Shown: positions 16,137 to 46,148, counted from the stretch's first letter. The stretch is 64,000 nt of DNA from Minisyncoccota bacterium (GCA_041660505.1 JBAZWG010000001.1:375183-439182); one strand, 5' to 3'. The notes: generated from the sequence alone by a model not told the origin. Numbers and translations: made by a program.

Positions 16137-16883
16137 CTATTCTGGAGTAAGACCCCAAAGAATGTCGAAGATAACCTTAAAGGCAGTGACTATTTCCGGA
16201 ATAGCAATAATAATAGCTACAGGATTTGTATGGCTCAAAACCAGCACTTTATCATCATGGATGTCCAAACTATCTTGGAATTGATATCCTTCCGGCAGGT
16301 AGCGTGATTCGCGCAATAGTTGCGGGTCGGCAGGGTCACCGCTACGTGAGTCGGCAGTCAGTAACAATTTCGTACTGATTCCCCGCGCACTGCGCTCATA
16401 ACGAAACTTAAGAAAAAAATCTGGGTCGATTGATTCCCATGTCATCGAGGAAATAATCCGATACCAGCGATCTTTTTTCGATTTTGTCTCATATTCATCC
16501 AAAAGTGATTCGTAGAAAGCTGTAATCTCCTTCTTCCCTTCCAGGTATCTGATTCCCAGCTTCTCGGTTTTAATTTTTTCCTGAGTCGGCAAGGTTGGAA
16601 TAAGAGTCTCGAATAGATTCAGCTTCCTGGAAAAAGCACGCGCCAACCACTCCGGCCGTTGGGCGGCATAATTTCGCTTCCCATTCTTAAAATAGACATT
16701 AACCACACCTTTTTCTGCTAATCCCTGCAAGATAGGGTAGATTGTCGTGCGCCTTAGGCCGATCTCTTTGGCCACCGCCGACGCCTGCGAGGCACCGAGT
16801 TTAAGAAGGGCCAAATAGGCCTGTGCCTCTTGCTCGCCCAACCCTAGATTCTTCAATGCCCTGGTTTGTTCGTGATAAGTCAT
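16137..16883 (-). CDS. TrmB-family transcriptional regulator (copy 1), divergent from the Cys-rich protein gene
   Basis: N-terminal wHTH LGLGEQEAQAYLALLKLGASQASAVAKEIGLRRTTIYPILQGLAEKGVV typical of TrmB, plus C-terminal TrmB-like domain. Confidence 0.8.
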   Translation of the reverse strand: MTYHEQTRALKNLGLGEQEAQAYLALLKLGASQASAVAKEIGLRRTTIYPILQGLAEKGVVNVYFKNGKRNYAAQRPEWLARAFSRKLNLFETLIPTLPTQEKIKTEKLGIRYLEGKKEITAFYESLLDEYETKSKKDRWYRIISSMTWESIDPDFFLKFRYERSARGISTKLLLTADSRSGDPADPQLLRESRYLPEGYQFQDSLDIHDDKVLVLSHTNPVAIIIAIPEIVTAFKVIFDILWGLTPE

Positions 16884-17012
16884 GGTTTAATAGTGTCAAA
16901 ATATTACTACACTTTTAATATTACCGATAATAGCTATATTTTACAAGTATATATTCAAGCATCATTGTTTACAGCTATTTACATAATATACATAATATAT
17001 AATACTAGCGGT

Positions 17013-18704
17013 ATGAATAAAGAAACTAAACAGTGTCAGAATTGCAAAAATAATTTTGCCATCGAACCCGAAGACTTTGCATTTTATGAAAAAATGCAGG
17101 TCCCGGCACCGACTTTCTGCCCTGAGTGCAGGATAATACGGCGATTCAGTTGGAGGAACGAGCGGTCATTGACGCGCAGACCTTGCGGTATTTGCAAGAA
17201 GCCGGTAGTTGCGATTTACTCGGAAACAAATCCTTTTCCCGTATATTGCCGAGATTGCTGGTGGTCGGACAAGTGGGATAGCAGTGACTATGGTCGGGAT
17301 TATGATTTTTCAAAACCATTTTTTTCTCAGTTCATGGAACTTTACAATCAAGTTCCGAAGGTGAACCTTTTCGGACAAAACAACGTGAACTCGGACTATT
17401 CCACCAATGTTTGGAATTGCAAAAATTGTTACCTGTGCACCTCAACGCTGAACTGTGAAGACATATTCTATTCTCGAGGGATGGATGCAAGCTTCTGGTG
17501 TGGCGATTGCCTGCATGTCTCAAAAGGTAATCATGCGTATGAATGCGTAGACTCCTCGAATGTTAATTCGAATTCGTTTCTCTCTGATTCATCCGATTGC
17601 GTTAATTCTCACTTTCTCTTTGACTCGCGCAATTGTTCGGACTGTTTCATGTCGGGTAACCTGCGTAACCGCCGCTTCGTGTTCCGTAATGAACAATGTT
17701 CCGAGGCAGACTACCGGGAGAAAATGGCGCAGATACAGATGAATAGCTACACGATGCTGCTGTCGCTCATTGAGGAATTTGAAAAGGTGAAACGGTCATC
17801 CATACACAGGTTTGCCAAGATACTAAAGAGTAACGACTGTACCGGCAATTCTATTTCTAATTCCCATAATGTAAAGGACAGTTTTTACATCGCCTCCGAC
17901 GGCGAGCACGTGAAGTATTGCTACCGTGGCCATCATATCACCGACGCGTATGACTCATCATTTGTCATCGAGGCCGAAATGGTGTATGAAAATTTGAACA
18001 TCGGCTACGGTGCTACTCGTTCCAAGTTCTGCACCAATATTACGTACAGCATACACGATGTGTCCTATTCCGATGCTTGCTATACCTCATCCGACCTATT
18101 CGGATGCGCAGGGCTGCGCGACAAGAAATACTGTATTCTCAATAAGCAGTATTCGAAAGAAGACTACGAGGCGCTCGTACCGAAAATTATTGAGCATATG
18201 AAGAGCACAGGTGAATATGGCGAATTTTTCCCCACCGCTCTTTCACCTTTTGCCTACAATGAAACGCTCGCACAAGAATATTACCCACTCTCAAAAGACG
18301 AGGTTTTGGCAAGAGGTTACCGGTGGAAAGAATCCGATGCCAAGAAATACGCGATAACCAAAGGTTCGAATGATCTGCCGAACGATATCAAAGATGTTCC
18401 GGATACGATAATCAAAGAGGTCATCATGTGTGCGCACAAGGACAAAGACTGCAACGAAATGTGCGCCACAGCATTTAGAATAATTCCGGCAGAATTAGAG
18501 TTGTATCGTAAAATGGGGTTACCGCTTCCTCGTCTCTGCCCCAACTGCCGCCATTTTGCCCGATTACAGAAAACCGTCCCGCTCAAACTCTGGAAACGGT
18601 CATGCATGAAACCGGGATGTATTAACGAATTTGAAACTTCATATGCACCTGATAAACCCGAGATCGTATATTGCGAATCTTGTTACCAGCAGGAAGTCAG
18701 CTAA
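17013..18704 (+). CDS. Large Cys-rich multi-zinc-ribbon protein, paralog A (unknown function)
   Basis: 563 aa from MNKETKQCQNC. CxxC-x17-CPxCR modules at both ends, central Cys/Asn/Ser repeat region. Clear paralog of 43573-45324. Confidence 0.75.
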   Translation: MNKETKQCQNCKNNFAIEPEDFAFYEKMQVPAPTFCPECRIIRRFSWRNERSLTRRPCGICKKPVVAIYSETNPFPVYCRDCWWSDKWDSSDYGRDYDFSKPFFSQFMELYNQVPKVNLFGQNNVNSDYSTNVWNCKNCYLCTSTLNCEDIFYSRGMDASFWCGDCLHVSKGNHAYECVDSSNVNSNSFLSDSSDCVNSHFLFDSRNCSDCFMSGNLRNRRFVFRNEQCSEADYREKMAQIQMNSYTMLLSLIEEFEKVKRSSIHRFAKILKSNDCTGNSISNSHNVKDSFYIASDGEHVKYCYRGHHITDAYDSSFVIEAEMVYENLNIGYGATRSKFCTNITYSIHDVSYSDACYTSSDLFGCAGLRDKKYCILNKQYSKEDYEALVPKIIEHMKSTGEYGEFFPTALSPFAYNETLAQEYYPLSKDEVLARGYRWKESDAKKYAITKGSNDLPNDIKDVPDTIIKEVIMCAHKDKDCNEMCATAFRIIPAELELYRKMGLPLPRLCPNCRHFARLQKTVPLKLWKRSCMKPGCINEFETSYAPDKPEIVYCESCYQQEVS

Positions 18705-20800
18705 ACTTTTTTATCTTTCTCCGCCTCCTTCCCCAGTTCATGCAGATCTTTCGTGAGCGTCTTTACTTCATCGCGCAGGAGCGCGGCGAGTTCAAAGTCT
18801 AGTTGTTTGGCCGCTTCTTTCATCTCTCTTTCTTTTTCTTTAATTAATTTCTCTAACGCTCTGGTTGTTTTTGGTACTGGCTTTAATTCCAGATTCAAAA
18901 CCTCTTCCGGCAAGATATCTTTTATCTCTTTGATAATAGTCTTGGGCGTGATGCCATGCTCTTTGTTATATGCGAGCTGTAAGGTACGGCGCTTGTTGGT
19001 CACGTCGAGCGCCTTCTGCATCGAGCCGGTCATAATGTCGCCGTAGAGAATGACTTGCCCCGACACATTGCGCGCCGCACGGCCGATAGTCTGAATGAGC
19101 GATGTTTCGCTTCGCAAGAATCCTTCTTTGTCGGCATCGAGTATCGCGACGAGAGAAACTTCCGGCAGGTCGAGACCCTCGCGAAGTAAGTTTACGCCCA
19201 CCAGCACGTCATACTTCCCTTTCCGGAATTCTGTAAGTATTTTTATTCTATCAAAAGTTTTTACATCGCTATGCAGATAGGCCGCTTTATATTTCTTCTC
19301 TTCCAAGTAGGCGCTCAAGTCCTCCGCCATCTTCTTGGTTAAGGTCGTTATCATTATTCTCTCTTTTTTCAGAATAACCGGATCAAGTCTTTTCTTTAAG
19401 TCCTCGATTTGTCCGCGCGCCGGAGACAAAATAATTTCGGGGTCAACCAGCCCAGTCGGTCGAATAATTTGTTCCGCGACCTGCGCGCTTTCCTTCAGCT
19501 CTTCTTCGCCCGGCGTAGCCGAGGTATATACCACTTGGCCGATCTTCGCCTCAAATTCTTCATAGCGCAAAGGCCGATTCTCGGCGGCAGAAGGAAGTCT
19601 GAAGCCGTACTCAATCAATGTCTTTTTGCGCGCCTGATCGCCAAAGTACATCCCGCGTATCTGGGGCAGTGTGATATGCGACTCGTCGATAATAGTGAGG
19701 AAGTCGGGAAACGGAGCGAGGCCATTCCCTCGTGAAGTTGACGAGGAGAGACCTCCTCCTGCCGCCCGATTGGCGGCTTGGGTCGTCGGAGGACTCACCT
19801 CATCAACTTGGGGAAAGTACGAGAGTAAGGAGTCAGGTGAGTCGCCTGGTTGCCTACCAGACAGATGCATCGAATAATTCTCGATACCACTGCAATATCC
19901 CACTTCACGGATCATCGCGAGGTCAAACTTGGTGCGACGTTCGATACGTTCTGCTTCGAGAAGTTTCCCTTCTTTTTCAAACTTTGCGAGCTGGGTTTTG
20001 AGTTCTGCCTGTATAGCTTTAATCGCACGCTCACGGTCAACACCTTCTGTAATGAAATGCTTAGCCGGCGCTATAGCCACAGTATCAACACTCGGTGTTG
20101 ATTTGGTCACGCCTTCCACGGGGTTAATCGCCAATATTTCAGAAATATAACCGTTCTGGACGCGCAAGTTATAAATAACCTCCTCATTCGCCGGCATTAT
20201 CTCCCATTGGTCACCACGGAGGCGGAATGTCCCGCGCGTTAGGTCTGCTGTCGTGCGCTTGAATTGGAGATTAATCAGTTTTTTTACTAAACTTGCGCGC
20301 TCTATCGCTAACCCAACATTAAAGAATAAAATATTCTCGCGATAGCGCTCCGGCGCACCGAGGCCGTAGATGCATGATACCGACGCCACTATTATCGTAT
20401 CTTTACGCGTAAGTAACGACATCGTCGCCGCGTGACGCAAACGGTCTATCTCCTCGTTAATCATCGCTTCTTTCTCTATATAAGTGTCAGTGATGGGCAT
20501 ATAAGCCTCGGGCTGGTAGTAGTCGTAATAGGAGACAAAGTAATGCACGGCGTTATTAGGGAATAATTCTCGAAATTCGTTACAGAGCTGAGCGGCGAGA
20601 GTCTTATTGTGCGCAATAACCAAGGTCGGCTTCCTCGCCTGTGCGATAACATTAGCCATTGTGAACGTCTTGCCACTACCGGTCACGCCGAGCAAGGTCT
20701 GCTTGGCCATACCCGCGTCTAAGCCAGCCACAAGCTTATTTATGGCCTTAGGCTGGTCGCCTGCCGGGGCATGTTTGGACTTAAGGTCGAAAATAGGCAT
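18701..20800 (-). CDS. uvrB: Excinuclease ABC subunit B (carries family-1 element insertion)
   Basis: 699 aa; helicase motifs GVTGSGKT, DESH, C-terminal UvrB/UvrC-interaction coiled coil. ~21 aa in-frame insert …SPPTTQAANRAAGGGLSSSTS… between YFP and DFL. Confidence 0.95.
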   Translation of the reverse strand: MPIFDLKSKHAPAGDQPKAINKLVAGLDAGMAKQTLLGVTGSGKTFTMANVIAQARKPTLVIAHNKTLAAQLCNEFRELFPNNAVHYFVSYYDYYQPEAYMPITDTYIEKEAMINEEIDRLRHAATMSLLTRKDTIIVASVSCIYGLGAPERYRENILFFNVGLAIERASLVKKLINLQFKRTTADLTRGTFRLRGDQWEIMPANEEVIYNLRVQNGYISEILAINPVEGVTKSTPSVDTVAIAPAKHFITEGVDRERAIKAIQAELKTQLAKFEKEGKLLEAERIERRTKFDLAMIREVGYCSGIENYSMHLSGRQPGDSPDSLLSYFPQVDEVSPPTTQAANRAAGGGLSSSTSRGNGLAPFPDFLTIIDESHITLPQIRGMYFGDQARKKTLIEYGFRLPSAAENRPLRYEEFEAKIGQVVYTSATPGEEELKESAQVAEQIIRPTGLVDPEIILSPARGQIEDLKKRLDPVILKKERIMITTLTKKMAEDLSAYLEEKKYKAAYLHSDVKTFDRIKILTEFRKGKYDVLVGVNLLREGLDLPEVSLVAILDADKEGFLRSETSLIQTIGRAARNVSGQVILYGDIMTGSMQKALDVTNKRRTLQLAYNKEHGITPKTIIKEIKDILPEEVLNLELKPVPKTTRALEKLIKEKEREMKEAAKQLDFELAALLRDEVKTLTKDLHELGKEAEKDKKV
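19743..19801. repeat. Family-1 palindromic element in-frame inside uvrB
   Basis: gaggagagacctcc-(31 nt)-ggaggactcacctc. Confidence 0.8.
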
Positions 20801-20822
20801 ACGTTTGCCTATTATAACACAG

Positions 20823-21224: not shown

Positions 21225-21252
21225 AATGTGTTACAGTGTAGCATACTTTTTG

Positions 21253-21323: not shown

Positions 21324-21337
21324 ACGAAAACAAAAAA

Positions 21338-21368: not shown

Positions 21369-21371
21369 AAT

Positions 21372-22306: not shown

Positions 22307-22312
22307 CCAGGA

Positions 22313-29594: not shown

Positions 29595-30017
29595 TCAACG
29601 TGCGCACATCGCGCACTTGCCCTGGTAGCCTGTGAGGTGGTGGTCGGGGCAATAAATATTGCCATACTCCGACCCGCACCCACAGCTCGGGCTGTCATGA
29701 GACCAGCCGGTGGGGAGCTTCTGCCCGCTCGACCTGCCGCCTGCCGCTTTTTCATCAGCGGTTTCGACGTGGTCGAGGACGTGAGCAGGAAGCTCCACCT
29801 CCTCGAGGCTCGCGCGCTCGAAAGCACGTCGGCAATCCTCTTCCGAACAGCGGAAGTAGGTGCTGACGCTCTTCTTGAGCTCGGCCGTCTTCAGAGACAG
29901 CGCGAGCTTGAGCGCCGCCAAGGTCTTGAACACCTCGGCGTGCGTAGCCTCGAAGCTCTTGAGCGCGGCCGTTGCTTCGGCCACCTCGCCCAAGAGCTCT
30001 TCGATTTTCTTCATCAT
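29595..30017 (-). CDS. Hypothetical protein with C-terminal Cys/His cluster (GC-rich island)
   Basis: 140 aa ORF, SD aaaggaggtgaatgATG, C-terminus CGCGSEYGNIYCPDHH…CAMC. Confidence 0.55.
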   Translation of the reverse strand: MMKKIEELLGEVAEATAALKSFEATHAEVFKTLAALKLALSLKTAELKKSVSTYFRCSEEDCRRAFERASLEEVELPAHVLDHVETADEKAAGGRSSGQKLPTGWSHDSPSCGCGSEYGNIYCPDHHLTGYQGKCAMCAR

Positions 30018-30131: not shown

Positions 30132-30779
30132 CTACCTCGTGGGGGTGGTCATCCTCACGAGGTAGTCGAGGTACTCCTCCGCCTTTGCGAGGCGAACGAG
30201 CACCTCTGCCCTACCGTTCACCCAGTCGACCCTTGCGGGCTCCTGGGTGAGTCGGTAGAGCACCCAGACGTCCCCGTCAAAGAGGATGGCCGCGGGGTTG
30301 AGCTTCTGCTCCAACCCCCGGATCCGCTCCTCGATCCGGAAGACGCGGCGCCGGAGCGCTTCGCCTTCCCGAATGGCTACCGCCTGTTCGGCGGTGAAGC
30401 GCGGGGGCAGGGCAATGCCCCACACCCGTGCCTCTGCCTCCAGGCGGCGCGCCTCGCGGAGGTAATCCACGAGGGCGCCGCCCTGGACCTCCAGCGGCTC
30501 CTGCTCCCCCGTTTGGGGGTTCAGAATCCGCTGGAACCGGCTGTCGACCCGGCGGCAGTCCCGGTAGTAATACCGGGACTGCCACCCAGGGTGGGCGAGG
30601 TCTAGATACCCTCGCCCCGGGTCAGCGGCCAGGAGCGCCGACGTCCTGGCCGTGAGGAGGATGAAGAGCTGCCGGAGCAACCCCTCATACCTCCTCGGGA
30701 TCCGCCTTTCGGCGCGTTTGCGCGCCAGCGGATCGTTCACGTCGATGGGATTCATAGTACCCATCCTTTCCAAGAGCAC
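30132..30779 (-). CDS. Hypothetical protein (GC-rich island)
   Basis: 215 aa ORF (GTG at 30779, or ATG at 30755 with a partial SD). GC-rich codon usage distinct from the flanks. Confidence 0.45.
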   Translation of the reverse strand: MLLERMGTMNPIDVNDPLARKRAERRIPRRYEGLLRQLFILLTARTSALLAADPGRGYLDLAHPGWQSRYYYRDCRRVDSRFQRILNPQTGEQEPLEVQGGALVDYLREARRLEAEARVWGIALPPRFTAEQAVAIREGEALRRRVFRIEERIRGLEQKLNPAAILFDGDVWVLYRLTQEPARVDWVNGRAEVLVRLAKAEEYLDYLVRMTTPTR

Positions 30780-31333: not shown

Positions 31334-31666
31334 TTAGGCCCGCTTCAGCCCCTTGCAGCCGACGGGCTGGCCGTCGGCGCCCCTGACCAAGTCGCCCGGG
31401 GCGAACACGTCGCCCCGCCCGGCGACTGTCGGGTGAGCGGCCACCAGGCCGCTCACCACGTAACCCACCCCCTCCTCGGGGGCCGGGAGGCCAGTCACCT
31501 CCCCGTAGGAGGCACGGCAGGTGGGGAAGCCTGCCACCTCCTTGTCCGCCACGAAGGTGGCGGCGGTCCGGGCAACCTGCCCGGACGGGTCGATGGACCC
31601 GACCTGGGCGTTCCCGCCCAGGTCTAAAATGTTGATCCGGTGCGGGGTGAGGTTGACGAGACGCAT
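31334..31666 (-). CDS. Hypothetical protein (GC-rich island)
   Basis: 110 aa from MRLVNLTPHRINI…, SD ggaggaaagg 9 nt upstream of ATG. Confidence 0.5.
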   Translation of the reverse strand: MRLVNLTPHRINILDLGGNAQVGSIDPSGQVARTAATFVADKEVAGFPTCRASYGEVTGLPAPEEGVGYVVSGLVAAHPTVAGRGDVFAPGDLVRGADGQPVGCKGLKRA

Positions 31667-31838
31667 AATGCGTCCTTTCCTCCGATTTATGCCTCGGAGC
31701 ACGGCTTTGGATTCAAGACCACGTTGGGCCCTGAAATTTTCACTCGAATTTTCAAGTGGAAATTTCAGGGTAAAGGATATTTATAAGAACATTCTTCCGT
31801 GAACGTTTTCCTCACGACTAAAAACACAAGGTCGGTGT

Positions 31839-31903: not shown

Positions 31904-32660
31904 ACGCGCAAACATTTTGCGTTCTTGGTCGTGAGGCTGAACATATGTTCAGCCTCCTTCTTTCCCTGTCGAACAACGCCTTGGCTATTTGCCTCGGACT
32001 TACTCGCTCGCAGGGTATTCTGTTGTCAAATAACCCGGTCGTTCTGTTGCATGCTATTACCCATACAACTTCAGATTCTCTTCGTTACTCCCCGCCTGCC
32101 ATCGCCTGAAGCTCAGGCTTTGGCGGGCAGGTCTCCTCAAAAGTTCTCTCCTCTTTTGGATTAACGATGCCGTTTGGTTCTCTCCTCACTTCTATCAGTG
32201 AGTGTCGGGGACGGAAGTTGGATGTCCTTCTGTCCCGACGCACTCATTGCTAGCGCATATACTGAATGTATCATTGCCTCCGCTTCTCTCTTTCTTAACC
32301 CTACTTGCCGGTTAGGGCGACCGTCCGGGGCTTTGGTATTGGCATACCTCGCCTTGTCCGGATCAGAGTTGAACGGTGTTACATTCTGTCGTATATGACC
32401 CTTGCGGGATTTTTGTAAAGACCTAATGCTTCCCTCTCCTCCTTGTCCGCCGGTGAGGCGGGTTATCTTATATAGAGAGAAGATTGTGTCCGACTTGCTG
32501 TCCGCTCCAATCTTCTATCTGTATTTTTTAACTGGCATAATCATACGCTAGCCTTGCCAGATTGTCAATACTATGTGATAGTTTATGGCATTTAGCGTCA
32601 TAAAGCCTTGATATTAGCCAAAATAGTGGCTTTATTGTGTTATCAGAGTGTCAAACTGTA

Positions 32661-32689
32661 TTGACAAGTAAAAGTCAAGATGATAGTAT
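32661..32689 (+). promoter_or_regulatory. Consensus sigma70-type promoter for TrmB-like gene 32759, with TGTCAA/TTGACA palindromes
   Basis: TTGACA-17 nt-TAGTAT. Upstream gtgtcaaactgtattgacaag and attgtcaatac inverted repeats overlap the -35. Confidence 0.6.
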
Positions 32690-32693
32690 GGCC

Positions 32694-32754
32694 GAGGAGA
32701 GACCTCTGGCTTGCCGTCTTATCGCCGGCTTTAATCAGCCCGAGGACTCACCTC
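32694..32754. repeat. Family-1 palindromic element forming the 5' UTR of the TrmB-like gene
   Basis: gaggagagacctc-(35 nt)-gaggactcacctc, starting ~5 nt after the -10 and ending 4 nt before the ATG. Confidence 0.75.
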
Positions 32755-32758
32755 ATCT

Positions 32759-33583
32759 ATGGGCGCAATATACAAAGAGAATCTGGTTCAGATAGGCTTA
32801 TCCGATAAGGAGGCGGTGGTCTATGAGGCCTTGCTCGGAGGTAAAGAGAACAGTATCGGCCAGTTATTGCATAAAATCCCCGAGATTAAGCGCCCCAATA
32901 TGTATGCCCTGCTCTATAGCCTTAAAGGCAAGGGGTTGGTGCAAGAGGTAGAGAAAAAGGGCAAAAAGGTCTTCACGCCGGAATCGCCCCAAAAGCTTGT
33001 CGACTTCGTCGATGCCAGAGGCTTCGAATATGAGCAAGCCAGGACAAATCTCGATTCCGCTCTCCCCTCTCTCATCTCGCAGTTCAATCTAGCCTCCGGC
33101 AAGCCGAACGTGCAGTTTTATGAGGGCGAGAAGGGTATGGAGAAAGTGGTCTTTGACTCGCTCACCTCAAAAACTGAAATACTTTCTTACGTCGACCACG
33201 AAGCGGTTGAGAAGTACTTCGCATCGTTCAACTCTCGCTATGTGGCCGAGCGCATAAAGAAAAATATTAAAAAGAAAATCATTGCGCTTGATACGCCCAG
33301 TATTCGCGAGGCGGCTAAGACGAGATATAATCCGGAATACACCGATGCCCGTGTTATCAGTGCCAGTAAATATGCGTTTGCGACAGTAATGCAAATCTAC
33401 GACGGCAAGGTGTCGTATCAAACATTAGACGAGAAGCAACTGGTCGGCGTAATAATTCAGGACGAGCGCATTTATAAAATGCATAAAGCTCTTTTCGAGT
33501 ACACGTGGGAGACGGCAGAGAATATTATGCCGCCTTCAACTCTTCCTGCTCTACCGACGCCTGATCTTCCCGCAGTAATGTAA
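32759..33583 (+). CDS. TrmB-family transcriptional regulator (copy 3)
   Basis: N-terminal wHTH IGLSDKEAVVYEALL…IPEIKRPNMYALLYSLKGKGLV plus C-terminal TrmB-like domain. 274 aa. Confidence 0.75.
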   Translation: MGAIYKENLVQIGLSDKEAVVYEALLGGKENSIGQLLHKIPEIKRPNMYALLYSLKGKGLVQEVEKKGKKVFTPESPQKLVDFVDARGFEYEQARTNLDSALPSLISQFNLASGKPNVQFYEGEKGMEKVVFDSLTSKTEILSYVDHEAVEKYFASFNSRYVAERIKKNIKKKIIALDTPSIREAAKTRYNPEYTDARVISASKYAFATVMQIYDGKVSYQTLDEKQLVGVIIQDERIYKMHKALFEYTWETAENIMPPSTLPALPTPDLPAVM

Positions 33584-35741
33584 AATATTCTTGTTTCCCG
33601 CGCAACGTCCGGCCGGTGGTCACGAATTTATTTTTGAGTGTATAATGCGCGAGCATTGGGCTGTCGACGGCAACTATCGCTTCTACCGGCGCGCGTCTCG
33701 CCTCTTGATCCAGAATAGTATCAAATAATGCGGTACCGAGAGAATATCCCTGCACGGATGGATCTGTAGAAAATGAACCGACGTAAGTGTGGCCGTTTTC
33801 GAGCGTCATAAATCGCACAAAGGCCACGACCTTGTCGCCCACTTTAAGCAAGTGGAAGCGCTGTTTTTCGTCTCGCAGAACTTCATCAAATTCGCGCAAA
33901 AGAACGTCTTTGGTCTCATTATCATATCGTCCGCGCGTGCGGTCGAAGATATCCCGCATTTGAGCACGTTCTGCATTGTTAAGTTCGCTTCCCAACTTCG
34001 TCTCAACGTGAGATGAAATAAGCTCATTGATGGGCAAATCGCCGGATTTCTTCGCCTCTTTGCAAACCGTAGCGAATAAGACTACATCTTTTTTAATACC
34101 GCGGAGTTCTTCTATTGCCTCGTGGCAGGTATGCATTATCTCTCCTTCTTTCACACCCTCCAGTTTTTTCACGGTATTATCGAGAAGCGCCTTGCATCTG
34201 GATAGCATTAAGCTGACTAATTCATCTTTTTGTTCCGGTGTTATTTCTTGACCAAAAGTAATCGCCACATAATCACTGAACTCATCTGATGCTCTAATAA
34301 TTTCTGCAGTCTTTGCAAAAATCACGCTCCCTAGTGCGGAAGGAACTTTTTCAGCTAGGTAAGTTATACTCTCTGTTGCGTCAGCGCCGACCGCATTAGT
34401 AAGAAAAGTTTTTAGAAAATTGACACCGTATTTTTCCGCACCTTGAACGATTTTCTCTTTCATTTCCGAATCTTTTTCTATCGTGTTGCCGAGCCATATC
34501 TGTTCACGCATATTTAATTTGTCGTGGATACCTATTCCGGTTCGCACAGATAATTCCAGAGAAAGATCTTTCACCTTCTTGCGGCTGGCGATTGCGAACT
34601 TTCTTTCTTCGCATTCTTTCGGGGTTTCTCCGGGCAGGCAAATTGATGTCGGCAATATCTGCTCGCCCTTTTTAAGCGAAAAGGAAACTCTGCTTCTGTC
34701 ATTTTTCATCTCAATCATTTTCCTAGCTATATCTTCTTCGTCTGCGAGCAACACTATATACTCTTCTGTTCCATCTTCGTTAAACAGCATGGCCATACCT
34801 TTTTCGAGCATTGTAGTCTTCCAGCCGGCGAACTCTCTCCCGAGAATATATTTAGCACCATTTATGTAGGCTACTCCATTTTTTGCGACTGTTTTCTCTT
34901 TACTTACCTCTGTGCCCGCTATATCTTTCATAACCCGAAAGTCTTCCGGCCTAAAAAGTCCTTTTTCAATCAATCTGGGACAATGGTCTCTTAGGAATCG
35001 CCACGGCGATTCTTCGAAAGTCCCGGAAGTGCCGCCTATCTGGCCGTATTTCCTTGTAAAGGCATAAGCAGAAAAAGGAATCCTCTCGCCATCCTGGATT
35101 ATTGTCAATCGCCCAGAATTGTCGCGTTCTGCAGCCAGCTCTCCAAATATTTTTTCTGTCAGAAACAGCTCGGCCAAACTTATGCTATTTCCGTCAGGCA
35201 GCACAATCTGATAATCCCATTTATGGTTGCCTCCAACATCCCACAGACCCAATTGAAAATCGGGGTAGTGCGCCTGAACATAGTCCGGATCTAGCGCATC
35301 TTTTATGGTCGGCGGTAGGTAAAAAAGCGGCCGTGACAAATCTGAAATGTCATTATCGTCTTCATCAAGCTCTTTTAAGTCAGCATAATTAACTACTTTT
35401 TCGCCCCTTAAATTTTCGAACAATTCGCTGCGGGACATCTCTCCTAGCTTTTCTACCCCCTTGGTATAATACTTGCTAAAAGCAAGGCGTCTTAATTTTT
35501 CCAAATTAACAACAGGTATCCCATCTATTTCTTGCCATATTCCCAATTGTTCCAATCGCTTTATGAGTTTATCTTTCATGGGGACCGCGACTTCCCTCCC
35601 AAGCGTCTTCTGTCCATGTTTTATCTCATAAGCTGTAGTCTTGCCTATATCATACTTCTCCATCAGATCTTTGGCTGACAAAGACCTGTCTTCTTCCGGG
35701 ATTTCTATTTTATTACTTTCTTCGCGACTGAATGATTCCAT
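33525..35741 (-). CDS. Large hypothetical protein with C-terminal GNAT-like acetyltransferase fold
   Basis: 738 aa. C-terminal ~150 aa resemble a GNAT fold (…VAFVRFMTLENGHTYVGSFSTDPSVQGYSLGTALFDTIL…). Convergent with and overlapping the TrmB-like gene. Confidence 0.55.
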   Translation of the reverse strand: MESFSREESNKIEIPEEDRSLSAKDLMEKYDIGKTTAYEIKHGQKTLGREVAVPMKDKLIKRLEQLGIWQEIDGIPVVNLEKLRRLAFSKYYTKGVEKLGEMSRSELFENLRGEKVVNYADLKELDEDDNDISDLSRPLFYLPPTIKDALDPDYVQAHYPDFQLGLWDVGGNHKWDYQIVLPDGNSISLAELFLTEKIFGELAAERDNSGRLTIIQDGERIPFSAYAFTRKYGQIGGTSGTFEESPWRFLRDHCPRLIEKGLFRPEDFRVMKDIAGTEVSKEKTVAKNGVAYINGAKYILGREFAGWKTTMLEKGMAMLFNEDGTEEYIVLLADEEDIARKMIEMKNDRSRVSFSLKKGEQILPTSICLPGETPKECEERKFAIASRKKVKDLSLELSVRTGIGIHDKLNMREQIWLGNTIEKDSEMKEKIVQGAEKYGVNFLKTFLTNAVGADATESITYLAEKVPSALGSVIFAKTAEIIRASDEFSDYVAITFGQEITPEQKDELVSLMLSRCKALLDNTVKKLEGVKEGEIMHTCHEAIEELRGIKKDVVLFATVCKEAKKSGDLPINELISSHVETKLGSELNNAERAQMRDIFDRTRGRYDNETKDVLLREFDEVLRDEKQRFHLLKVGDKVVAFVRFMTLENGHTYVGSFSTDPSVQGYSLGTALFDTILDQEARRAPVEAIVAVDSPMLAHYTLKNKFVTTGRTLRGKQEYFTLLREDQASVEQEELKAA

Positions 35742-37021: not shown

Positions 37022-39388
37022 TTGATGAGGCCCGGGCCGAAACCAAAGATATACATTTCTACTGAGTGGTCTAGCAACCTCGCTTATGCAGTTGGTCTTA
37101 TCACTGCTGATGGCTGTCTGTCAAAGGATGGCCGCCATATTGACTTTACATCAAAAGACCCAGATCAAATAGAAACCTTTATCAGGTGCCTCGGACTTCA
37201 CTCACTTGTTAGACCAAAGAAATCCGGTGCTGGAAGGTTTGCATTTCGAACCCAGTTTGGGAATGTATCGTTTTACAGATTTCTATTAGGCATTGGACTA
37301 ACGCCCGCAAAATCGAAAACTATTTCGAAACTTGAAATTCCCGACGAATATTTCTGGGATTTCATGCGTGGATATTTCGATGGTGACGGCACGAGCTTTT
37401 CGTATTTTGATCCGGTATTTCCTAAAAGCTATCGTTTTTATGTTGCTTTCGCTTCGGCAAGTGAGCCATATCTACTTTGGCTACAAGAGAAGGCATATAG
37501 GTCCGCAGGGTTAAAAGGCTACATTAACAGAGGCGTTAACCCTTCAAGCCTACAACTCAAGTATGCGAAGAAAGAAGCAATAGTCTTATGTCAAAAAATG
37601 TATTATGATGATAGCGCTCCCAGACTCCAAAGAAAATACGAGAAAATCTTGGATTCGATGAGCATTATTAACAGCAAACGCCGGGGTGGTGAAATTGGTA
37701 TACACGCAGCGTTCAGAACGCTGTGGGGGCAACCCCATGGAGGTTCAAGTCCTCTCTCCGGCACTTTTAACTCATTTCACGTGAAAAATAAGAAAGAATC
37801 TCCAGCTTACTATATCCCCTCCCATGTTCTGGGGGTTGTAACTACTTTACAAAAGGCCGGCTTCGAGGCATATCTCGTCGGTGGCTGTGTGCGCGATATA
37901 TTGATGGAGAACAAGCCAAAAGACTGGGATGTTACGACAAACGCCCGCCCGGAGCAGATCCAAGCCCTATTTAACGAGACTTTCTATGAAAACGAGTATG
38001 GCACGGTCGGCGTCGTGGTAGAAGACCTTTCACGTGAAAAGCTCAATATCGTTTCACAAGAAACGTTTGATGAGCTTTCACGTGAAAGCATGGAAGCCTT
38101 AGAGGTCGAACCTCGGGCTCCCAGAGGTTCGACCTCGGGCGCAGACCCAAGCCCGAAAGAGGTGATCGAGGTTACACCTTATAGGCTAGAAACCAAGTAT
38201 TCCAACTTTCGCCATCCGGACGCTGTCACCTTTAGCACCAGTCTGGGGGACGACCTGAAACGCCGGGATCTGACCATCAATGCCATCGCTTATGACCCCA
38301 ATAGCCCTAAAGGACAGTTTATAGACCCCTTTAACGGTCTAAAGGACATAAAGGACATGGTAATCCGCGCCGTAGGAGAGCCCTCGGACCGCTTCTGCGA
38401 GGATGCTTTGCGCATGATGCGTGCGGTGCGCCTGGCCGCCCAGCTCGGCTTTATGATTGACCCTGCGACCGAGCAAGCGATTGTTGCGAACAAGGCGCTT
38501 ATCACTAAGATAGCGGCCGAGCGTATCCATGACGAACTTATGAAGCTTTTAAATACCGAGTACGCGGTTGATGGCATTAGGTATCTAAAGATTACCGGCC
38601 TTCTTGAACTTATAATCCCTGAACTTCTTGAGGGGATAGGCATAGAGCAGAGAGGGGAGCATATCTATGACGTCTGGGAGCATAACCTCAAGTCGCTCGA
38701 ACACGCCGTCAAGAAGGGTTGGCCATTTCACGTGAGACTTGCAGTGCTGTTACACGACGTGGGCAAGCCGCGTACGCGCTTGCGCGATGAGGAGAGGCAA
38801 ATCTGGACATTCCATGGCCATGATGTGGTCGGTGGCAAGATGACCAAAAAGATACTTGAACGGCTCAAATTTTCACGTGAAATGATTGATAATATTTCTA
38901 AACTAGTGCGTTATCATCTTTTCTTCTCCGATACCGATAAAATCACGCTTTCTGCCGTACGCCGGATGATTCGCAACGTCGGCGCTGATTTGATATGGGA
39001 TTTAATGAAGGTGCGCCAGTGCGACAGAATAGGCACGGGCCGGCCCAAAGAAAGTCCTTATAGACTGCGCAAATACGAAGCGATGATAGAAGAGGCAATG
39101 CGCGATCCAATATCGGTGCAGATGTTAAAGATTGACGGCGCGAAGATAATGGAAATAGGGGAGATGGACCCCGGGCCGAAGATTGGCTGGGTGTTGCACG
39201 CCTTACTTGAGGAAGTACTAGAAGACCCGGCTAAGAATACGACAGAGTATCTGGAGACTCATACTAAAAAATTATTGGCACTTTCTGACAAGGAATTACA
39301 AGAACTCGGTGAAGCGGGAAAGGAGAAGAAGTCAGGGCTTGAAGAAGCGGCTATAGAAGAAATCAACAAGAGACACTACGTGAAGTAA
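37022..39388 (+). CDS. cca: CCA-adding enzyme (tRNA nucleotidyltransferase, HD domain) with an N-terminal LAGLIDADG homing-endonuclease-like domain and internal repeat-derived insert
   Basis: Residues ~1-210: two LAGLIDADG motifs (LAYAVGLITADGCL; FMRGYFDGDGTSF). Residues ~270-788: pol-beta nucleotidyltransferase (GGCVRDILM…DWDVTT), RRDLTINA, HD domain (LLHDVGKP). One continuous 788-aa ORF. Confidence 0.85.
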   Translation: MMRPGPKPKIYISTEWSSNLAYAVGLITADGCLSKDGRHIDFTSKDPDQIETFIRCLGLHSLVRPKKSGAGRFAFRTQFGNVSFYRFLLGIGLTPAKSKTISKLEIPDEYFWDFMRGYFDGDGTSFSYFDPVFPKSYRFYVAFASASEPYLLWLQEKAYRSAGLKGYINRGVNPSSLQLKYAKKEAIVLCQKMYYDDSAPRLQRKYEKILDSMSIINSKRRGGEIGIHAAFRTLWGQPHGGSSPLSGTFNSFHVKNKKESPAYYIPSHVLGVVTTLQKAGFEAYLVGGCVRDILMENKPKDWDVTTNARPEQIQALFNETFYENEYGTVGVVVEDLSREKLNIVSQETFDELSRESMEALEVEPRAPRGSTSGADPSPKEVIEVTPYRLETKYSNFRHPDAVTFSTSLGDDLKRRDLTINAIAYDPNSPKGQFIDPFNGLKDIKDMVIRAVGEPSDRFCEDALRMMRAVRLAAQLGFMIDPATEQAIVANKALITKIAAERIHDELMKLLNTEYAVDGIRYLKITGLLELIIPELLEGIGIEQRGEHIYDVWEHNLKSLEHAVKKGWPFHVRLAVLLHDVGKPRTRLRDEERQIWTFHGHDVVGGKMTKKILERLKFSREMIDNISKLVRYHLFFSDTDKITLSAVRRMIRNVGADLIWDLMKVRQCDRIGTGRPKESPYRLRKYEAMIEEAMRDPISVQMLKIDGAKIMEIGEMDPGPKIGWVLHALLEEVLEDPAKNTTEYLETHTKKLLALSDKELQELGEAGKEKKSGLEEAAIEEINKRHYVK
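37775..38902. repeat. Cluster of five TTTCACGTGAAA 12-bp palindromes inside the CCA gene
   Basis: Copies at 37775, 38028, 38076, 38726 (tttcacgtgaga) and 38891, in two different codon phases. Confidence 0.8.
38103..38140. repeat. Family-3 paired palindrome element, in-frame inside the CCA gene
   Basis: gaggtcgaacctcggg-ctccca-gaggttcgacctcggg, encoding LEVEPRAPRGSTSG. Confidence 0.7.
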
Positions 39389-42743: not shown

Positions 42744-42744
42744 T

Positions 42745-43002: not shown

Positions 43003-43011
43003 CTAAAATCA

Positions 43012-43038
43012 AAAACCGCCAATTTTTTGGTGGTTTTT
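43012..43038 (+). terminator. Rho-independent terminator after the TA pair
   Basis: aaaaaccgccaa-ttttt-tggtggtttttgtg. Confidence 0.7.
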
Positions 43039-43088
43039 GTGTTGCCCATGAGTCCTCCTTTCGAAATTTACTCCTGGGCGGGAAAGAA

Positions 43089-43472
43089 CTAGGCCTGCTC
43101 GTCGGCAGGCAGAGATTGGCCTCGTGTGAGCGGGCGACAGATGCCGAGCACAACCTTGACGCGTTCCGTTGTAGCGGCGAGAAGTGCCCGGAAGATGTAC
43201 TCGGCCACCCGCCAGTCAATCTGTTGGCCGTTGGCCCAAGCCCGGCAAGTAGCCTCTGCACTCTGTGCAGAGGCTACGTCGTACAGGTACTCGAGGCCTG
43301 GTTTCCCCGTTCGCTCGAGTTCGCGGGCAATATTAACCACGTCCTTGGAACTAGCGTCTGCCAAGACTGCGAGCAGACGCCTCCGTTCTTGGTCGTTTCT
43401 GATCAGAGTAAGGACGAGCGCAGCATAAGCCCGACGATCGTCCAAGTCCGGAATTATCGGCCGATAAACCAC
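43089..43472 (-). CDS. Hypothetical protein (GC-rich, GTG start)
   Basis: 127 aa ORF; acaaggaggtgaaagGTG extended SD. Confidence 0.45.
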   Translation of the reverse strand: MVYRPIIPDLDDRRAYAALVLTLIRNDQERRRLLAVLADASSKDVVNIARELERTGKPGLEYLYDVASAQSAEATCRAWANGQQIDWRVAEYIFRALLAATTERVKVVLGICRPLTRGQSLPADEQA

Positions 43473-43572
43473 CTTTCACCTCCTTGTAACCGTTACAAGC
43501 ACACCGTCTGTAATACTAGCATGCAAAAAAAGATTGACAATGAGCCCTGAAGAAAAAGCAAGGGTGTTTTAT

Positions 43573-45324
43573 CTACGCCACTTCGGCGTTGTAGCAGCTC
43601 TCGCAGTATACTATCTCCGGTTTATTGGGCGAATACGCTGTTCTGATATCCTTACCGCACTTCGCGCATTGCCTATCGTATAATTCCAGTTTACTGCGCT
43701 GTTCGAGGCGCTCGTAATGCCGACAGGCGGGGCAAAGATGCGGCACGGGTATATTATTATCGCGATAAAACTGCAGCTCCGCGGGAATAATTTTGAATGC
43801 GGTTGCGCATTGCTGCGAGCAGTTACCTGCATGTTCACAGCCGATAATCTCATTAAGTATCGTATCCGGGGTATCTTTGATTCTGTCAGGAATATTTTCT
43901 GGTTTGAGCGTAATGCTGAAACTTTTTTCTGCAGACTTGCGCCAGGCGAACTTCATTGCCGCCGCTTCTGCGGCGTTTAATGGAAAGTAGTCAAAGGCTA
44001 TTGTCTCGTTGTAAGCCCAAGGAGAGAACTCGGGCGGGAAGAACTCGCCATATGAATAGACGCGCCCTTTCGTATCTTGATACGGCACATCTTTCATATG
44101 CTGAATGATTTTCGGCACGAGCGCTTGATACTCCTCTCTACTATACTGCTTGTTCAGGATGCAATACTCCTTTTTGCGCAGGCCAACACAACCGAATAAA
44201 TTGGCCGAGCTGGAACAGAGCACAGAATACTCAATGTCATGCACACCTTCTTGAACATAAAGACAGAATTTAATACGGTTTGTATCGATACCGCAGGCGC
44301 AACATTCATAATCTAGTTGATTGTTGCCGCCCCAGATAGAGAAATCGTAGCAATCTTTACTGCCCGGAATCTCTTGCATATATTGGCAATAACGCAAATC
44401 TTCGCCCTCGCGGATCAAGAAACTATCTTTAACATTCTTACTGTGACTGATATAGCTGCCACTCACATCACTGTTGTGCGAGCCGACCAGATATTTGTTC
44501 GGGAACTTGAGCCAGAATTCATGTGCCTGCTTCTTTATCTTTTCTAAATTCTGATGCGAATTCCAATCAAGCTCTGCAAGTTTCTTAAAATACTCTTCTT
44601 TCGAATACGACTCGTTCCATATATGATATTTCTGATTGCGCAAACCGACACAGCCGACGCAGTCTGAACAGCCGACGCAATTTTTACTGAAGAGCATGTT
44701 TACGCAGCTTTCGCATTCGGCAGAGAAGAAAGTTTTTGCGCATGACGTGAGCCAGAAGCTTTCATAACATTGCTCTGATTTTCCTAAATGCGAAACATCT
44801 ACAGAATCTAGCGTATGCGTGAGCCCGTTTGAGTACATACAGTTTTCCGAATCACTGCAATTAAAAGCGAGATAGCAATTCTTTGGATTAGTAAAGTGAT
44901 TAACATAATCACTTCCAACACCGTTCACCACGTTCAAGTTCTTCATCGGCACATTCTTCCAAAGATCTCGCACCTGTTCCAAGAATGGCTTATTGAAGTC
45001 AATATCGACTCCATATTCCATCGGGTCCCAAGCGTCAGAAAGCCACACATCTTTCTCATACACTTTGTATCCTGACTCTTGCGAATACATCGAGAAGATA
45101 TCTTTGCCCGTAGCGGCACTTTTGATTTTATACAAATTTCGCTCGTTGCGAAAAGCAAAGCGGCGTTGGGCGCGACACAGAGAGCACCAAGTCGGCGGGG
45201 GAACATCTACCTTTGCGTAGAAAGTAAAATCTTGCACGTCTATAACAAAACTCTTTTTGCAACTCTGGCACACTTTTGTTTCACTGTTTGTTTGCGTATT
45301 CATATCAACATTCTGCATTACCAA
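43573..45324 (-). CDS. Large Cys-rich multi-zinc-ribbon protein, paralog B
   Basis: 583 aa; same terminal CxxC…CPxCR modules and central Cys-repeat region as 17013-18704. Confidence 0.75.
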   Translation of the reverse strand: MVMQNVDMNTQTNSETKVCQSCKKSFVIDVQDFTFYAKVDVPPPTWCSLCRAQRRFAFRNERNLYKIKSAATGKDIFSMYSQESGYKVYEKDVWLSDAWDPMEYGVDIDFNKPFLEQVRDLWKNVPMKNLNVVNGVGSDYVNHFTNPKNCYLAFNCSDSENCMYSNGLTHTLDSVDVSHLGKSEQCYESFWLTSCAKTFFSAECESCVNMLFSKNCVGCSDCVGCVGLRNQKYHIWNESYSKEEYFKKLAELDWNSHQNLEKIKKQAHEFWLKFPNKYLVGSHNSDVSGSYISHSKNVKDSFLIREGEDLRYCQYMQEIPGSKDCYDFSIWGGNNQLDYECCACGIDTNRIKFCLYVQEGVHDIEYSVLCSSSANLFGCVGLRKKEYCILNKQYSREEYQALVPKIIQHMKDVPYQDTKGRVYSYGEFFPPEFSPWAYNETIAFDYFPLNAAEAAAMKFAWRKSAEKSFSITLKPENIPDRIKDTPDTILNEIIGCEHAGNCSQQCATAFKIIPAELQFYRDNNIPVPHLCPACRHYERLEQRSKLELYDRQCAKCGKDIRTAYSPNKPEIVYCESCYNAEVA

Positions 45325-45355
45325 GCGTAATGAGTCAATTCTTGTCAGACAATTG

Positions 45356-45383
45356 TTGACAGAACACTGACAACGAGTATAAT
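45356..45383 (+). promoter_or_regulatory. Consensus sigma70-type promoter of TrmB-like gene copy 2 (apparently leaderless)
   Basis: TTGACA-16 nt-TATAAT with the ATG 7 nt after the -10. Imperfect palindrome tgtcagacaattgttgaca overlaps the -35. Confidence 0.6.
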
Positions 45384-45389
45384 ATCATT

Positions 45390-46148
45390 ATGATTAAGCC
45401 AATCTTAAGTAAGCTCGGTTTGAGTGAGAGCGAGATCGCTGTGTACAGTCAGGTGGTAAGGCATCGGCTTTGCACACCGGCACTGATTGCCCGCGAGACC
45501 AAGTTAAATAGACCGACGGTATACAACATCTGTAAGAAATTGGTCGCCCGCGGCCTACTTATTGAGGATTTGGGTGATAAGACCTTAAAATTACTGCCTA
45601 CAGCGCCAGATGAACTCGCTTCTATATTAAAACGGGACGAAGAGGAACTTAAAAATAAAGCACTGGTGCTGGAGCAATTGGGTAATGAGCTCGCGCTTAT
45701 GAAGAGCAGCAGGACGTACCCCGTGCCAAGAGTACGTTTTATAGAACAGGATCGGCTCAATGCGTATATGCATACACAAACGCCGACGTGGAACACGAGC
45801 ATCGGTAATTACGATAATATCTGGTGGGGATTCCAAGACCATACTTTTGTGGAGCAGTACAAAGAGTATATTTTGTGGTTCTGGAGGACAGCTGATGAGA
45901 GTATTAGCCTTAATTTACTTAGCAATAGCGCGCCAATAGAGGAGGAGATGAAAACAGAGAATTTCACACGTCGCCACATAAAGCCGTGGGACAAGGGCAT
46001 GATGTTTAGTGCCACGACATGGGTATTAGGCGACTATCTCGTTATGATTGTAACCGACAAAGAGCCGCATTACCTTGTAGAAATCCACGACGAACGCATG
46101 GCGGGGAACTTTCGCGAGTTGTTTAAGAACATTTGGGGATTGATTTAG
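45390..46148 (+). CDS. TrmB-family transcriptional regulator (copy 2), divergent from Cys-rich paralog B
   Basis: N-terminal wHTH LGLSESEIAVYSQVV…IARETKLNRPTVYNICKKLVARGLL. Confidence 0.75.
   Translation: MIKPILSKLGLSESEIAVYSQVVRHRLCTPALIARETKLNRPTVYNICKKLVARGLLIEDLGDKTLKLLPTAPDELASILKRDEEELKNKALVLEQLGNELALMKSSRTYPVPRVRFIEQDRLNAYMHTQTPTWNTSIGNYDNIWWGFQDHTFVEQYKEYILWFWRTADESISLNLLSNSAPIEEEMKTENFTRRHIKPWDKGMMFSATTWVLGDYLVMIVTDKEPHYLVEIHDERMAGNFRELFKNIWGLI

Follow-up and report, generated by a model that had tools for sequence, protein, structure and literature searches.

Why should two genes for large cysteine-rich (Cys-rich) proteins each stand head-to-head with a gene for a TrmB-family regulator? 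This question is raised by a stretch of 64,000 nucleotides (nt) from Minisyncoccota bacterium (GCA_041660505.1, JBAZWG010000001.1:375183-439182), which was analyzed over its whole length and is referred to here as the window. The original prediction, made from the sequence alone, described the two loci as a duplicated divergent module pointing to an uncharacterised regulated system. Our study leads to a different account, to which, taken as a whole, we assign about an even chance of being right: the TrmB proteins locally regulate Cys-rich genes that they have captured, and the Cys-rich proteins are zinc scaffolds that partner VirD4/TrwB-like ATPases. The novelty lies in the Cys-rich protein family and its link to these ATPases; the TrmB arrangement is an ordinary local regulator-target layout.

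Two divergent gene pairs in the window

The five open reading frames (ORFs) named by the original prediction are all present in the ORF list and its translations, and the head-to-head layout at two loci is borne out. At the first locus, trmB-A (16137..16883, minus strand), encoding a winged helix-turn-helix (wHTH) regulator of 248 amino acids (aa), diverges from CYS-A (17013..18704, plus strand), whose 563-aa translation is identical to the 563-aa record P0124. At the second, trmB-B (45390..46148, plus strand; wHTH regulator of 252 aa) diverges from CYS-B (43573..45303, minus strand). The length of 583 aa first given for CYS-B is that of the ORF, which reaches TTG 45324; the start is probably ATG 45303, giving 576 aa, because homologs open with MxxETKxC and this codon follows the end of a promoter-like site by 7 nt. 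Both Cys-rich genes are monocistronic and divergent from a one-component regulator, with intergenic gaps of 129 nt (TrmB-A/CYS-A) and 86 nt (TrmB-B/CYS-B), and both pairs are isolated head-to-head units between convergent genes, uvrB being the one that flanks CYS-A. When the 73 ORFs of the window were permuted, 0.6% of trials placed both Cys-rich genes next to a TrmB gene, and 0.03% placed both head-to-head with one. The two-pair layout is therefore real and beyond chance inside the window.

A Cys-rich protein family of Patescibacteria

CYS-A and CYS-B align end to end with 42% identity (E 9e-155), in agreement with their description as clear but diverged paralogs. A search covering 5.8 billion proteins found more than 7,100 family clusters at 90% identity, all from Patescibacteria and throughout either unnamed or named 'hypothetical' or 'zinc-binding domain-containing', and an exhaustive hidden Markov model (HMM) search at E<=1e-30 gave at least 2,238 clusters at 50% identity, nearly all of 545-600 aa. 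The family is confined to Patescibacteria, mainly Paceibacteria. The statement that no characterised domain is recognisable proved essentially right, and the profile and structure checks reached no characterised family. Both proteins are below threshold in every Pfam, NCBIfam and PADLOC model, and none of the PADLOC anti-phage defence models matches either of them. CYS-B has only sub-threshold scores against the uncharacterised models zf_Tbcl_2 (24.6 bits against 27), zf_Tbcl (16.5 against 24) and TIGR04272 (21.8 against 36), CYS-A matches none of these three, and weak zinc-finger matches (zf_Tbcl / zf_Tbcl_2) appear in just 12 and 9 of 48 family members. Among the PHROGs there is one weak match, to the unknown-function family phrog_15341 (E 4e-4 to 4e-3). 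No significant relative was found in the PDB; a LIM-like fold was considered as the family and rejected, its lone sequence-profile match there being non-significant (E 0.03-1). A full-text literature search for the family, the domain accessions and TrmB in the candidate phyla radiation found no description of the Cys-rich family.

Zinc modules and beta-solenoids

The AlphaFold model of CYS-A, based on a 48-sequence alignment, has a pLDDT (predicted local distance difference test) of 81.9 and a pTM (predicted template modelling score) of 0.83. Domain bounds were taken from this model, from conservation and Cys columns over 175 full-length members, and from hhalign comparisons of internal duplications. 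They delimit an N-terminal double Zn module (residues 1-95), a first beta-solenoid (~115-225) followed by a helical linker, a second beta-solenoid (~270-375), a conserved core (376-470) and a C-terminal double Zn module (471-563). The N- and C-terminal Zn modules are homologous (hhalign probability 99.6%, E 5e-24), so that the claim of the same module at both termini holds at the family level. The two central regions are likewise homologous (99.9%, E 7e-36), and the regularly spaced Cys/Asn/Ser repeats noticed earlier are real, forming in the model two narrow, Cys/Asn/Ser-rich beta-solenoids. Judging from alignment and model, the protein is a predicted inverted internal duplication of the form Zn module - solenoid / solenoid - core - Zn module.

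Each double Zn module consists of a treble-clef-like finger and a CxxC-x17-CxxC ribbon, both of the Cys4 type. The four Cys quartets, two per terminus (C8/C11/C36/C39, C58/C61/C79/C82, C480/C484/C509/C512 and C531/C536/C554/C557), occupy positions kept in 60-100% of the 175 members, and they follow the pattern CxxC-x17-CxxC together with CxxC...CxxC and then a basic helix. The second N-terminal quartet is present in ~60% of members and missing in CYS-B; the CxxCxxCxxC motif that closes solenoid 1 is kept in CYS-B. The proteins have a median of 34 Cys, ~6% in 563 aa, and 4-5 Cys4 sites are conserved in each. Their treble-clef modules are basic (net charge +2 and +4) and carry invariant Arg clusters after their second CxxC (CR..RR...RNER and CRH..R), the solenoids are acidic, and the median isoelectric point (pI) of the whole protein is 6.4. 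A hydropathy scan, the only such test made and one that does not address signal peptides, found no membrane segment in the Cys-rich proteins. Between orthologs the synonymous divergence is saturated and only the non-synonymous divergence (dN) is comparable; it indicates ordinary purifying selection and no hypervariable surface.

In the public annotation of this metagenome-assembled genome, CYS-A is a protein of 351 aa (P0004, MFA6006497.1) that starts at residue 213 and leaves out the N-terminal Zn module and solenoid 1 (window 17013-17648); the full-length record P0124 belongs to a different assembly.

Regulators of different origin

The count of three TrmB-family regulators in 64 kb is accurate. 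Their Pfam PF01978 scores of 59.9, 40.0 and 34.9 bits all exceed the cut-off of 25.6, the E-values being 2e-16 for TrmB-A and 4e-10 for TrmB-B. The third, TrmB-C (32759..33583, plus strand, 274 aa), adjoins, as had been noted, the gene of a 738-aa protein (33525..35741, minus strand) with a C-terminal GNAT domain (Pfam Acetyltransf_1, residues 595-688). The two genes have no common promoter, since they are convergent (tail-to-tail) with a 59-nt overlap, and the 738-aa protein is not a member of the Cys-rich family.

It is in the regulators that the description of a duplicated module fails. TrmB-A and TrmB-B are 31% identical over 52 residues of the HTH and show nothing in common beyond it, whereas the Cys-rich proteins are alike over their full length; TrmB-C, 25% identical to TrmB-A over 259 aa, is nearer to TrmB-A than TrmB-B is. 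Duplication of the pair as a unit was rejected because the regulators have just the HTH in common, and TrmB-A and TrmB-B belong to different TrmB lineages. TrmB-A has 41 homologs, all from Patescibacteria, and TrmB-B has 286. For the C-terminal (sugar-binding) domain of TrmB there is no Pfam match in the window regulators at E<=0.1, and their NCBIfam TrmB/TrmBL1 scores of 15-46 bits remain below the equivalog cut-offs of 500-650.

Several TrmB-family genes occur within a few kb in relatives (four in the 10.7 kb of locus L093, two each in L090, L091 and L092), which points to a lineage-specific expansion of TrmB-like regulators. In L090-L093, RelB/YafQ-ParE toxin-antitoxin pairs are often located directly downstream of a TrmB gene.

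The pairing in related genomes

The persistence of the pairing was examined in 80 loci with a Cys-rich member, from different species-level genomes and with up to 10 kb of flank per side (1.28 Mb in total), whose ORFs were searched with the window proteins and with HMMs from 160 TrmB homologs. The outcome differs with scale: the pairing is kept in narrow lineages, but at the family level it is found in very few cases. A TrmB-like gene lies within 10 kb of a Cys-rich gene in 2 of the 80 loci (L053 and L019), and a TrmB domain is found in none of 137 immediate neighbours of Cys-rich genes. The nearest homolog of CYS-A (P0001, 69%) belongs to a five-copy array behind an 88-aa ArsR-type gene, with no TrmB neighbour. 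As TrmB adjacency is this rare, TrmB regulation cannot be central to the function of the Cys-rich family. A lack of conserved adjacency among relatives had been named beforehand as a refuting outcome; on that measure, the original claim fails for the family and holds up in narrow lineages alone.

Seen from the regulators, the orthologs of TrmB-A with 67%, 59% and 50% identity diverge from verified Cys-rich genes in one to three copies (E<=1e-197), and those with 45-49% from a cupin gene or from an aminotransferase/methyltransferase operon; between 50 and 67% identity the partner is Cys-rich in three of four cases. The Cys-rich genes beside TrmB-A orthologs form three paralog lineages that share 33-38% identity among themselves and with CYS-A, those of L085 and L086 belonging to the same lineage (69% identical). 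Two readings fit this diversity of partners, namely differential loss from an ancestral array and repeated capture. In those relatives of TrmB-A that have the TrmB/Cys-rich pairing, it persists with differing outer flanks.

The TrmB-B orthologs with 92% and 80% identity are divergent from a CYS-B ortholog (74-78% identical), and the one with 90% (L097) accompanies a CYS-B ortholog that is 79% identical, with two genes inserted between the pair; the CYS-B orthologs of L096-L098 cover 74-79% identity. At 77% identity the divergent partner is not Cys-rich, and at 66%, 58% and 51% the partners include a periplasmic binding protein, an amino-acid ABC transporter and a xanthine/uracil permease. In L053:12636-15639, a member of a third TrmB lineage, the one nearest to TrmB-C, diverges from an acylphosphatase-like gene and the Cys-rich gene after it, which form a two-gene unit.

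Conserved bidirectional promoter cassettes

Promoters were called by consensus scans, and operator-like sites by phylogenetic footprints of aligned intergenic regions. In the TrmB-A lineage, operator-like site 1 (16893..16912, GTGTAGTAATATTTTGACAC on the minus strand) lies 9 nt before the trmB-A start codon, and the motif TGTCGTAAAATTTTGACA precedes the trmB start by 5-12 nt in all eight TrmB-A-lineage loci compared. The promoter-like site of CYS-A (16968..16996, plus strand; TTTACA, 17-nt spacer, CATAAT; 10 of 12 consensus positions) is overlapped at its -35 box by operator-like site 2 (16966..16983; minus-strand sequence TGTAAATAGCTGTAAACA), and a second motif (TGTAAATA / CGTCAAT ... GACA) is kept toward the divergent gene in orthologous loci.

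At the second locus, the candidate trmB-B promoter (45356..45383, plus strand; TTGACA, 16-nt spacer, TATAAT) agrees with the consensus at 12 of 12 positions and has a conserved CTGACAAC box inside its spacer. The palindrome TGTCAGACAATTGTTGACA (45343..45361; TGTCA-N9-TGACA), kept in L093-L095, is situated between the two divergent -35 boxes and overlaps that of trmB-B. It is abutted by the promoter-like site of CYS-B (45310..45338, minus strand; TTGACT, 17-nt spacer, CAGAAT), whose -35 box (GTCAAT on the plus strand) is also kept in TrmB-B loci where the divergent gene is a transporter. The conserved TrmB-B cassette is thus composed of the divergent gene's -35 box, the palindrome, the trmB -35 box, the CTGACAAC box and the -10 box. 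Because the promoter-like site of CYS-B ends 7 nt before ATG 45303, a leaderless or near-leaderless CYS-B mRNA is suggested.

Upstream of trmB-C, the palindrome TGTCAAACTGTATTGACA (32649..32666; TGTCA-N8-TGACA) overlaps a TTGACA box. Exact TGTCA-N8/9-TGACA sequences occur twice in the 64 kb, against 0.08 expected, and are found in the window at TrmB promoters alone, those of trmB-B and trmB-C; palindromes of the wider TGTC-N-GACA type are present at all three trmB promoters and beside the Cys-rich -35 boxes as putative operators. The footprints are kept in eight TrmB-A-lineage and four TrmB-B-lineage loci regardless of the divergent gene, and the palindromes overlie the regulator's own promoter and either adjoin or overlie the divergent gene's -35 box. 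A bidirectional promoter cassette with TGTC-N(8-10)-GACA-type palindromes thus appears to be conserved separately in each regulator lineage.

The 5' leader of trmB-C is unusually long, at ~70 nt, and GC-rich-looking (window 32667-32758), behind a promoter-like TTGACA, 17-nt spacer and TAGTAT; trmB-B, in contrast, appears leaderless or nearly so.

Tandem arrays and VirD4/TrwB-like ATPases

In relatives, members of the Cys-rich family mostly stand in tandem, as arrays of full-length paralogs on one strand with ~30-55% identity to each other. The largest has 10 copies in 21 kb (L026), followed by nine in L049, eight in L035 (one of them split) and five in several others, with further arrays in L021, L024, L030 and L048. 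Neighbouring genes were clustered around 191 phmmer matches, of which 188 are Cys-rich genes and three are long ATPases resembling type IV coupling proteins (T4CP). The commonest neighbour is an ATPase of this VirD4/TrwB type (TrwB_AAD_bind, T4SS-DNA_transf, TraG-D_C, DUF87), which is also the top Pfam family among the 137 immediate neighbours: a T4CP-like gene lies within 10 kb in 27 of the 80 Cys-rich loci and is adjacent in 20, always co-directional.

In the long T4CP-like ATPases (612-754 aa), the ATPase domain is followed by a zf_Tbcl_2 ribbon that reaches 43-46 bits, where the gathering score is 27. The Cys-rich termini have a ribbon of the same type, and it is through this common ribbon that phmmer with a Cys-rich query retrieves three of these ATPases. 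Ribbon-bearing genes are found at L007:2130-4394, L021:16332-18434, L041:4560-6746 and in 10 other cases; in 11 of the 13, the next gene downstream is a co-directional Cys-rich gene at a distance of -1 to 83 nt. Our own HMM of the C-terminal Zn module found no match among the non-family neighbours, and Pfam together with a regular-expression search then placed the module in the long ATPases. No transmembrane (TM) segment was detected by hydropathy scan in those short and long T4CP-like forms that were checked. After the ribbon, the long forms have a long, low-complexity-looking tail that ends in a conserved EVPEDVLRKILE motif.

The window encodes one protein of this type (56522..58900, minus strand, 792 aa; Pfam TrwB_AAD_bind, DUF87, TraG-D_C), a fused, membrane-anchored form. 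Its N-terminal ~370 aa, with one TM helix, are homologous to a separate membrane protein of 440-550 aa (L010:807-2156, L036:6466-7812) whose gene, in other genomes, precedes by two positions that of a short T4CP-like ATPase lacking any TM segment in the hydropathy scan. Since the N-terminal part of the window protein matches this separately encoded protein, the same ATPase machine appears to exist in fused and split forms.

A recurrent layout of these neighbourhoods is grpE - CYS - CYS - (cutA) - paaX-like(-) - dnaK - x - ATPase - CYS - CYS - ATPase - dnaJ - CYS, and chaperone genes are interleaved with Cys-rich and T4CP-like genes in L043, L044, L021, L067, L054, L058 and others. Small ArsR/SmtB-type wHTH genes (88-91 aa) also lie beside arrays, as in L081:5665-5931 and L064:19830-20102 (the latter in cluster 35, also seen in L002, L048 and L070).

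Proposed mechanism

Our favoured account has a regulatory part and a functional part. Local regulation of CYS-A and CYS-B by the adjacent TrmB proteins is likely from the promoter sequences. A TrmB dimer would autoregulate and would repress, or less likely activate, the neighbouring Cys-rich gene, and this control would be relieved by a small-molecule ligand of the TrmB C-terminal domain. A nutrient signal is plausible, because orthologous cassettes drive amino-acid and purine uptake genes. The cassettes would be self-contained, autoregulated bidirectional units with exchangeable cargo, two Cys-rich paralogs having been captured here; that is, we infer that the TrmB proteins are generic local repressors that captured two family members. 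Such local cassettes do not imply that TrmB is a partner specific to the Cys-rich family. Of the regulated system that was originally proposed, local regulation and the uncharacterised nature of the Cys-rich family stand; the dedicated, duplicated system and the family-wide partnership do not.

As for function, the Cys-rich proteins would be zinc-stabilised rigid scaffolds that serve as partners, adaptors or substrates of orphan VirD4/TrwB-like hexameric ATPases, and the tandem arrays of paralogs would supply different specificities. That they work with these ATPases is our best guess, held with low to moderate confidence. Across 2,918 patescibacterial genomes, a survey from 2025 counted 5,713 VirD4-like genes, of which only 148 lay close to virB4, and it assigned them no role (PMC12102498). 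The gene of a coupling protein often neighbours substrate-processing genes in the known systems (PMC12102498). A more specific version, which we regard as doubtful, is that the Cys-rich family and the Zn-ribbon orphan ATPases constitute an undescribed, Paceibacteria-specific machine. Its hexamer would dock a repertoire of rigid double-solenoid proteins (arrays of up to 10 or more paralogs) via the zinc modules common to both and would translocate or remodel them, or a macromolecule that they hold, for example in host-cell interaction; here, two paralogs would have been put under nutrient-type TrmB switches. If true, this machine would explain thousands of coupling-protein genes far from type IV secretion loci in Patescibacteria.

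Several observations weigh against this account. TrmB adjacency is rare when viewed from the Cys-rich side, and TrmB-like genes are dense in this lineage (three in 64 kb here, four in L093), which raises the chance of such adjacency. The operators and promoters are consensus and footprint calls throughout. The ATPase of the window, its sole T4CP-like gene, lies 11 kb from CYS-B and has no Zn ribbon, so that the ATPase/Cys-rich pairing of other Paceibacteria is absent here. The strength of the ATPase association is overstated, because it was measured in loci chosen for their Cys-rich genes, many of which are of common ancestry (grpE-dnaK-dnaJ context). Export in an unfolded state is hard to reconcile with four or five structural Zn sites. 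Finally, the purifying selection between orthologs and the non-hypervariable solenoid surface argue against a role as arms-race effectors, and an arms-race recognition surface on the solenoids, considered as a candidate, was dropped in view of the dN comparison.

Patescibacterial genomes are ~0.7-1 Mb in size, with no function assigned to most of the lineage-specific genes. A family that takes up as much as ~18 kb of one locus (the 10 copies of L026) must matter to patescibacterial biology, and arrays of this size are a striking investment for genomes of ~1 Mb. The ATPase link provides a concrete, testable hypothesis for the orphan VirD4-like ATPases, and CYS-A and CYS-B offer two natural 'switchable' family copies. 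The TrmB-like one-component regulators seem to travel with a conserved bidirectional promoter/operator cassette and to swap cargo, which is useful for regulon prediction in uncultivated bacteria.

Alternative explanations

The rival account that survives best, although we consider it unlikely, gives the adjacency no regulatory meaning: both families are multi-copy, the pairs are leftovers of rearrangement, and TrmB controls itself or a distant target. It agrees with the low association at the family level, with the local density of TrmB-like genes, with the change of TrmB-B-lineage cargo between 66% and 80% regulator identity, and with the L097 pair split by two inserted genes. However, the gaps of the window pairs are so short that the divergent promoters necessarily overlap the conserved palindromes, the conserved -35 box of the divergent gene belongs to the TrmB-B cassette, and the pairing outlasts changes of the outer flanks.

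A second possibility, which we think a good deal less than probable, concerns function: the Cys-rich proteins could be factors that bridge or handle DNA or RNA, with basic terminal modules held apart by the solenoids, and might feed DNA to FtsK/TrwB-type ATPases. The charge of the treble-clef modules and their invariant Arg clusters would suit such a role, as would the TrwB-type 'DNA-binding domain' ATPases among the neighbours and the presence of uvrA, uvrB and uvrC as neighbours here and in four other loci. Yet the protein as a whole is slightly acidic and its solenoids are negatively charged, no significant structural match to any DNA- or RNA-binding protein was found, and the neighbourhoods consist mostly of mixed housekeeping genes.

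It is improbable that the Cys-rich proteins are metallothionein-like buffers of zinc or thiophilic metals under a metal-sensing wHTH regulator (TrmB-like here, ArsR-like elsewhere). Their Cys content and conserved Cys4 sites, the small ArsR/SmtB-type HTH genes beside arrays in L081-L083 and in four cluster-35 loci, and a CutA1 neighbour in 4-5 loci speak for this idea. Metallothioneins are small proteins with ~30% Cys and no stable fold without metal, a class into which a 563-aa protein with ~6% Cys and a confidently modelled multidomain fold does not fit. Moreover, the Cys quartets look structural (treble-clef and ribbon knuckles) in a large, well-folded protein, strongly conserved non-Cys surface and core motifs suggest a specific binding or catalytic role, and CYS-B and ~40% of members are without one Zn ribbon.

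Last, a dedicated two-gene system of TrmB and Cys-rich protein, duplicated as a unit and with a regulator specific to the family, is largely refuted and the least credible of all, for in spite of the head-to-head placement of both window pairs (permutation p ~0.0003) and of the third TrmB lineage divergent from the acylphosphatase and Cys-rich operon in L053, the regulators are alike in the HTH only, 78 of the 80 Cys-rich loci have no TrmB-like gene, regulator orthologs face unrelated cargo, and the nearest CYS-A homolog has no TrmB neighbour.

Comparison with known systems

Like the TrmB/TrmBL1 sugar-sensing regulators of Thermococcales and Halobacteria, the window regulators have an N-terminal wHTH (PF01978), genes beside their presumed targets and palindromic putative operators. 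They differ in length (~250 aa against 338-349 profile positions in the characterised models), in that the archaeal C-terminal sugar-binding domain was not detected in them with Pfam or NCBIfam, in their TGTC/GACA half-sites, and in their bacterial host (Patescibacteria). A wHTH regulator gene beside a predicted Cys-rich metal-binding protein also recalls the SmtB-SmtA pairs, the more so as ArsR-like genes flank some arrays; SmtA-type proteins, however, are small thiolate-cluster proteins, whereas those of the Cys-rich family are large, folded and multidomain with structural Cys4 sites.

The zinc modules share Cys spacing and motif (F.I..E..FY.K...P.P..C..CR; C..C-x17-YC..C) with the uncharacterised families zf_Tbcl (PF13451), zf_Tbcl_2 (PF23477) and TIGR04272. 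Unlike in zf_Tbcl and zf_Tbcl_2, both finger types are fused in one module, which is duplicated at the ends of a protein of 570 aa. LIM domains (CRP family) similarly have two consecutive zinc fingers with similar spacing, but their ligand spacing differs, and the N-terminal Cys-rich copy is without His. For the solenoids, the nearest comparisons are the narrow Cys-rich beta-solenoids, such as the spruce budworm antifreeze protein (PDB 1M8N), and the left-handed beta-helix acyltransferases; superposition and repeat signature did not place them with either group. With the VirD4/TrwB coupling proteins, the likeness lies in other Paceibacteria, where a T4CP-like ATPase gene stands directly upstream of Cys-rich arrays in the same orientation. 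In contrast to VirD4/TrwB systems, the patescibacterial ATPases are orphan and far from virB4, the long forms have a zf_Tbcl_2 ribbon and a long C-terminal tail, and no relaxase or known effector features are present.

Other features of the window

A tRNA match of 84 nt (52.9 bits) at 37680-37763 on the plus strand falls inside a 788-aa, TTG-initiated ORF (37022-39388), which is therefore probably over-extended or spurious around it. Between 29400 and 31700 there is a GC-rich island, with a local GC content of 0.63-0.71 against ~0.47 elsewhere. Its three minus-strand ORFs (29595-30017, 30132-30779 and 31334-31702) have ribosome-binding sites of the GGAGG type and AT-rich spacers that resemble hairpins. 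Pfam and Rfam scans of the island gave no match, nor did a tblastn search of phage genomes. The phage families phrog_30542 and phrog_21731 are matched (E 4e-20) by the 122-aa protein encoded at 31334-31702, and the island probably represents DNA of foreign or mobile origin, or else a chimeric assembly.

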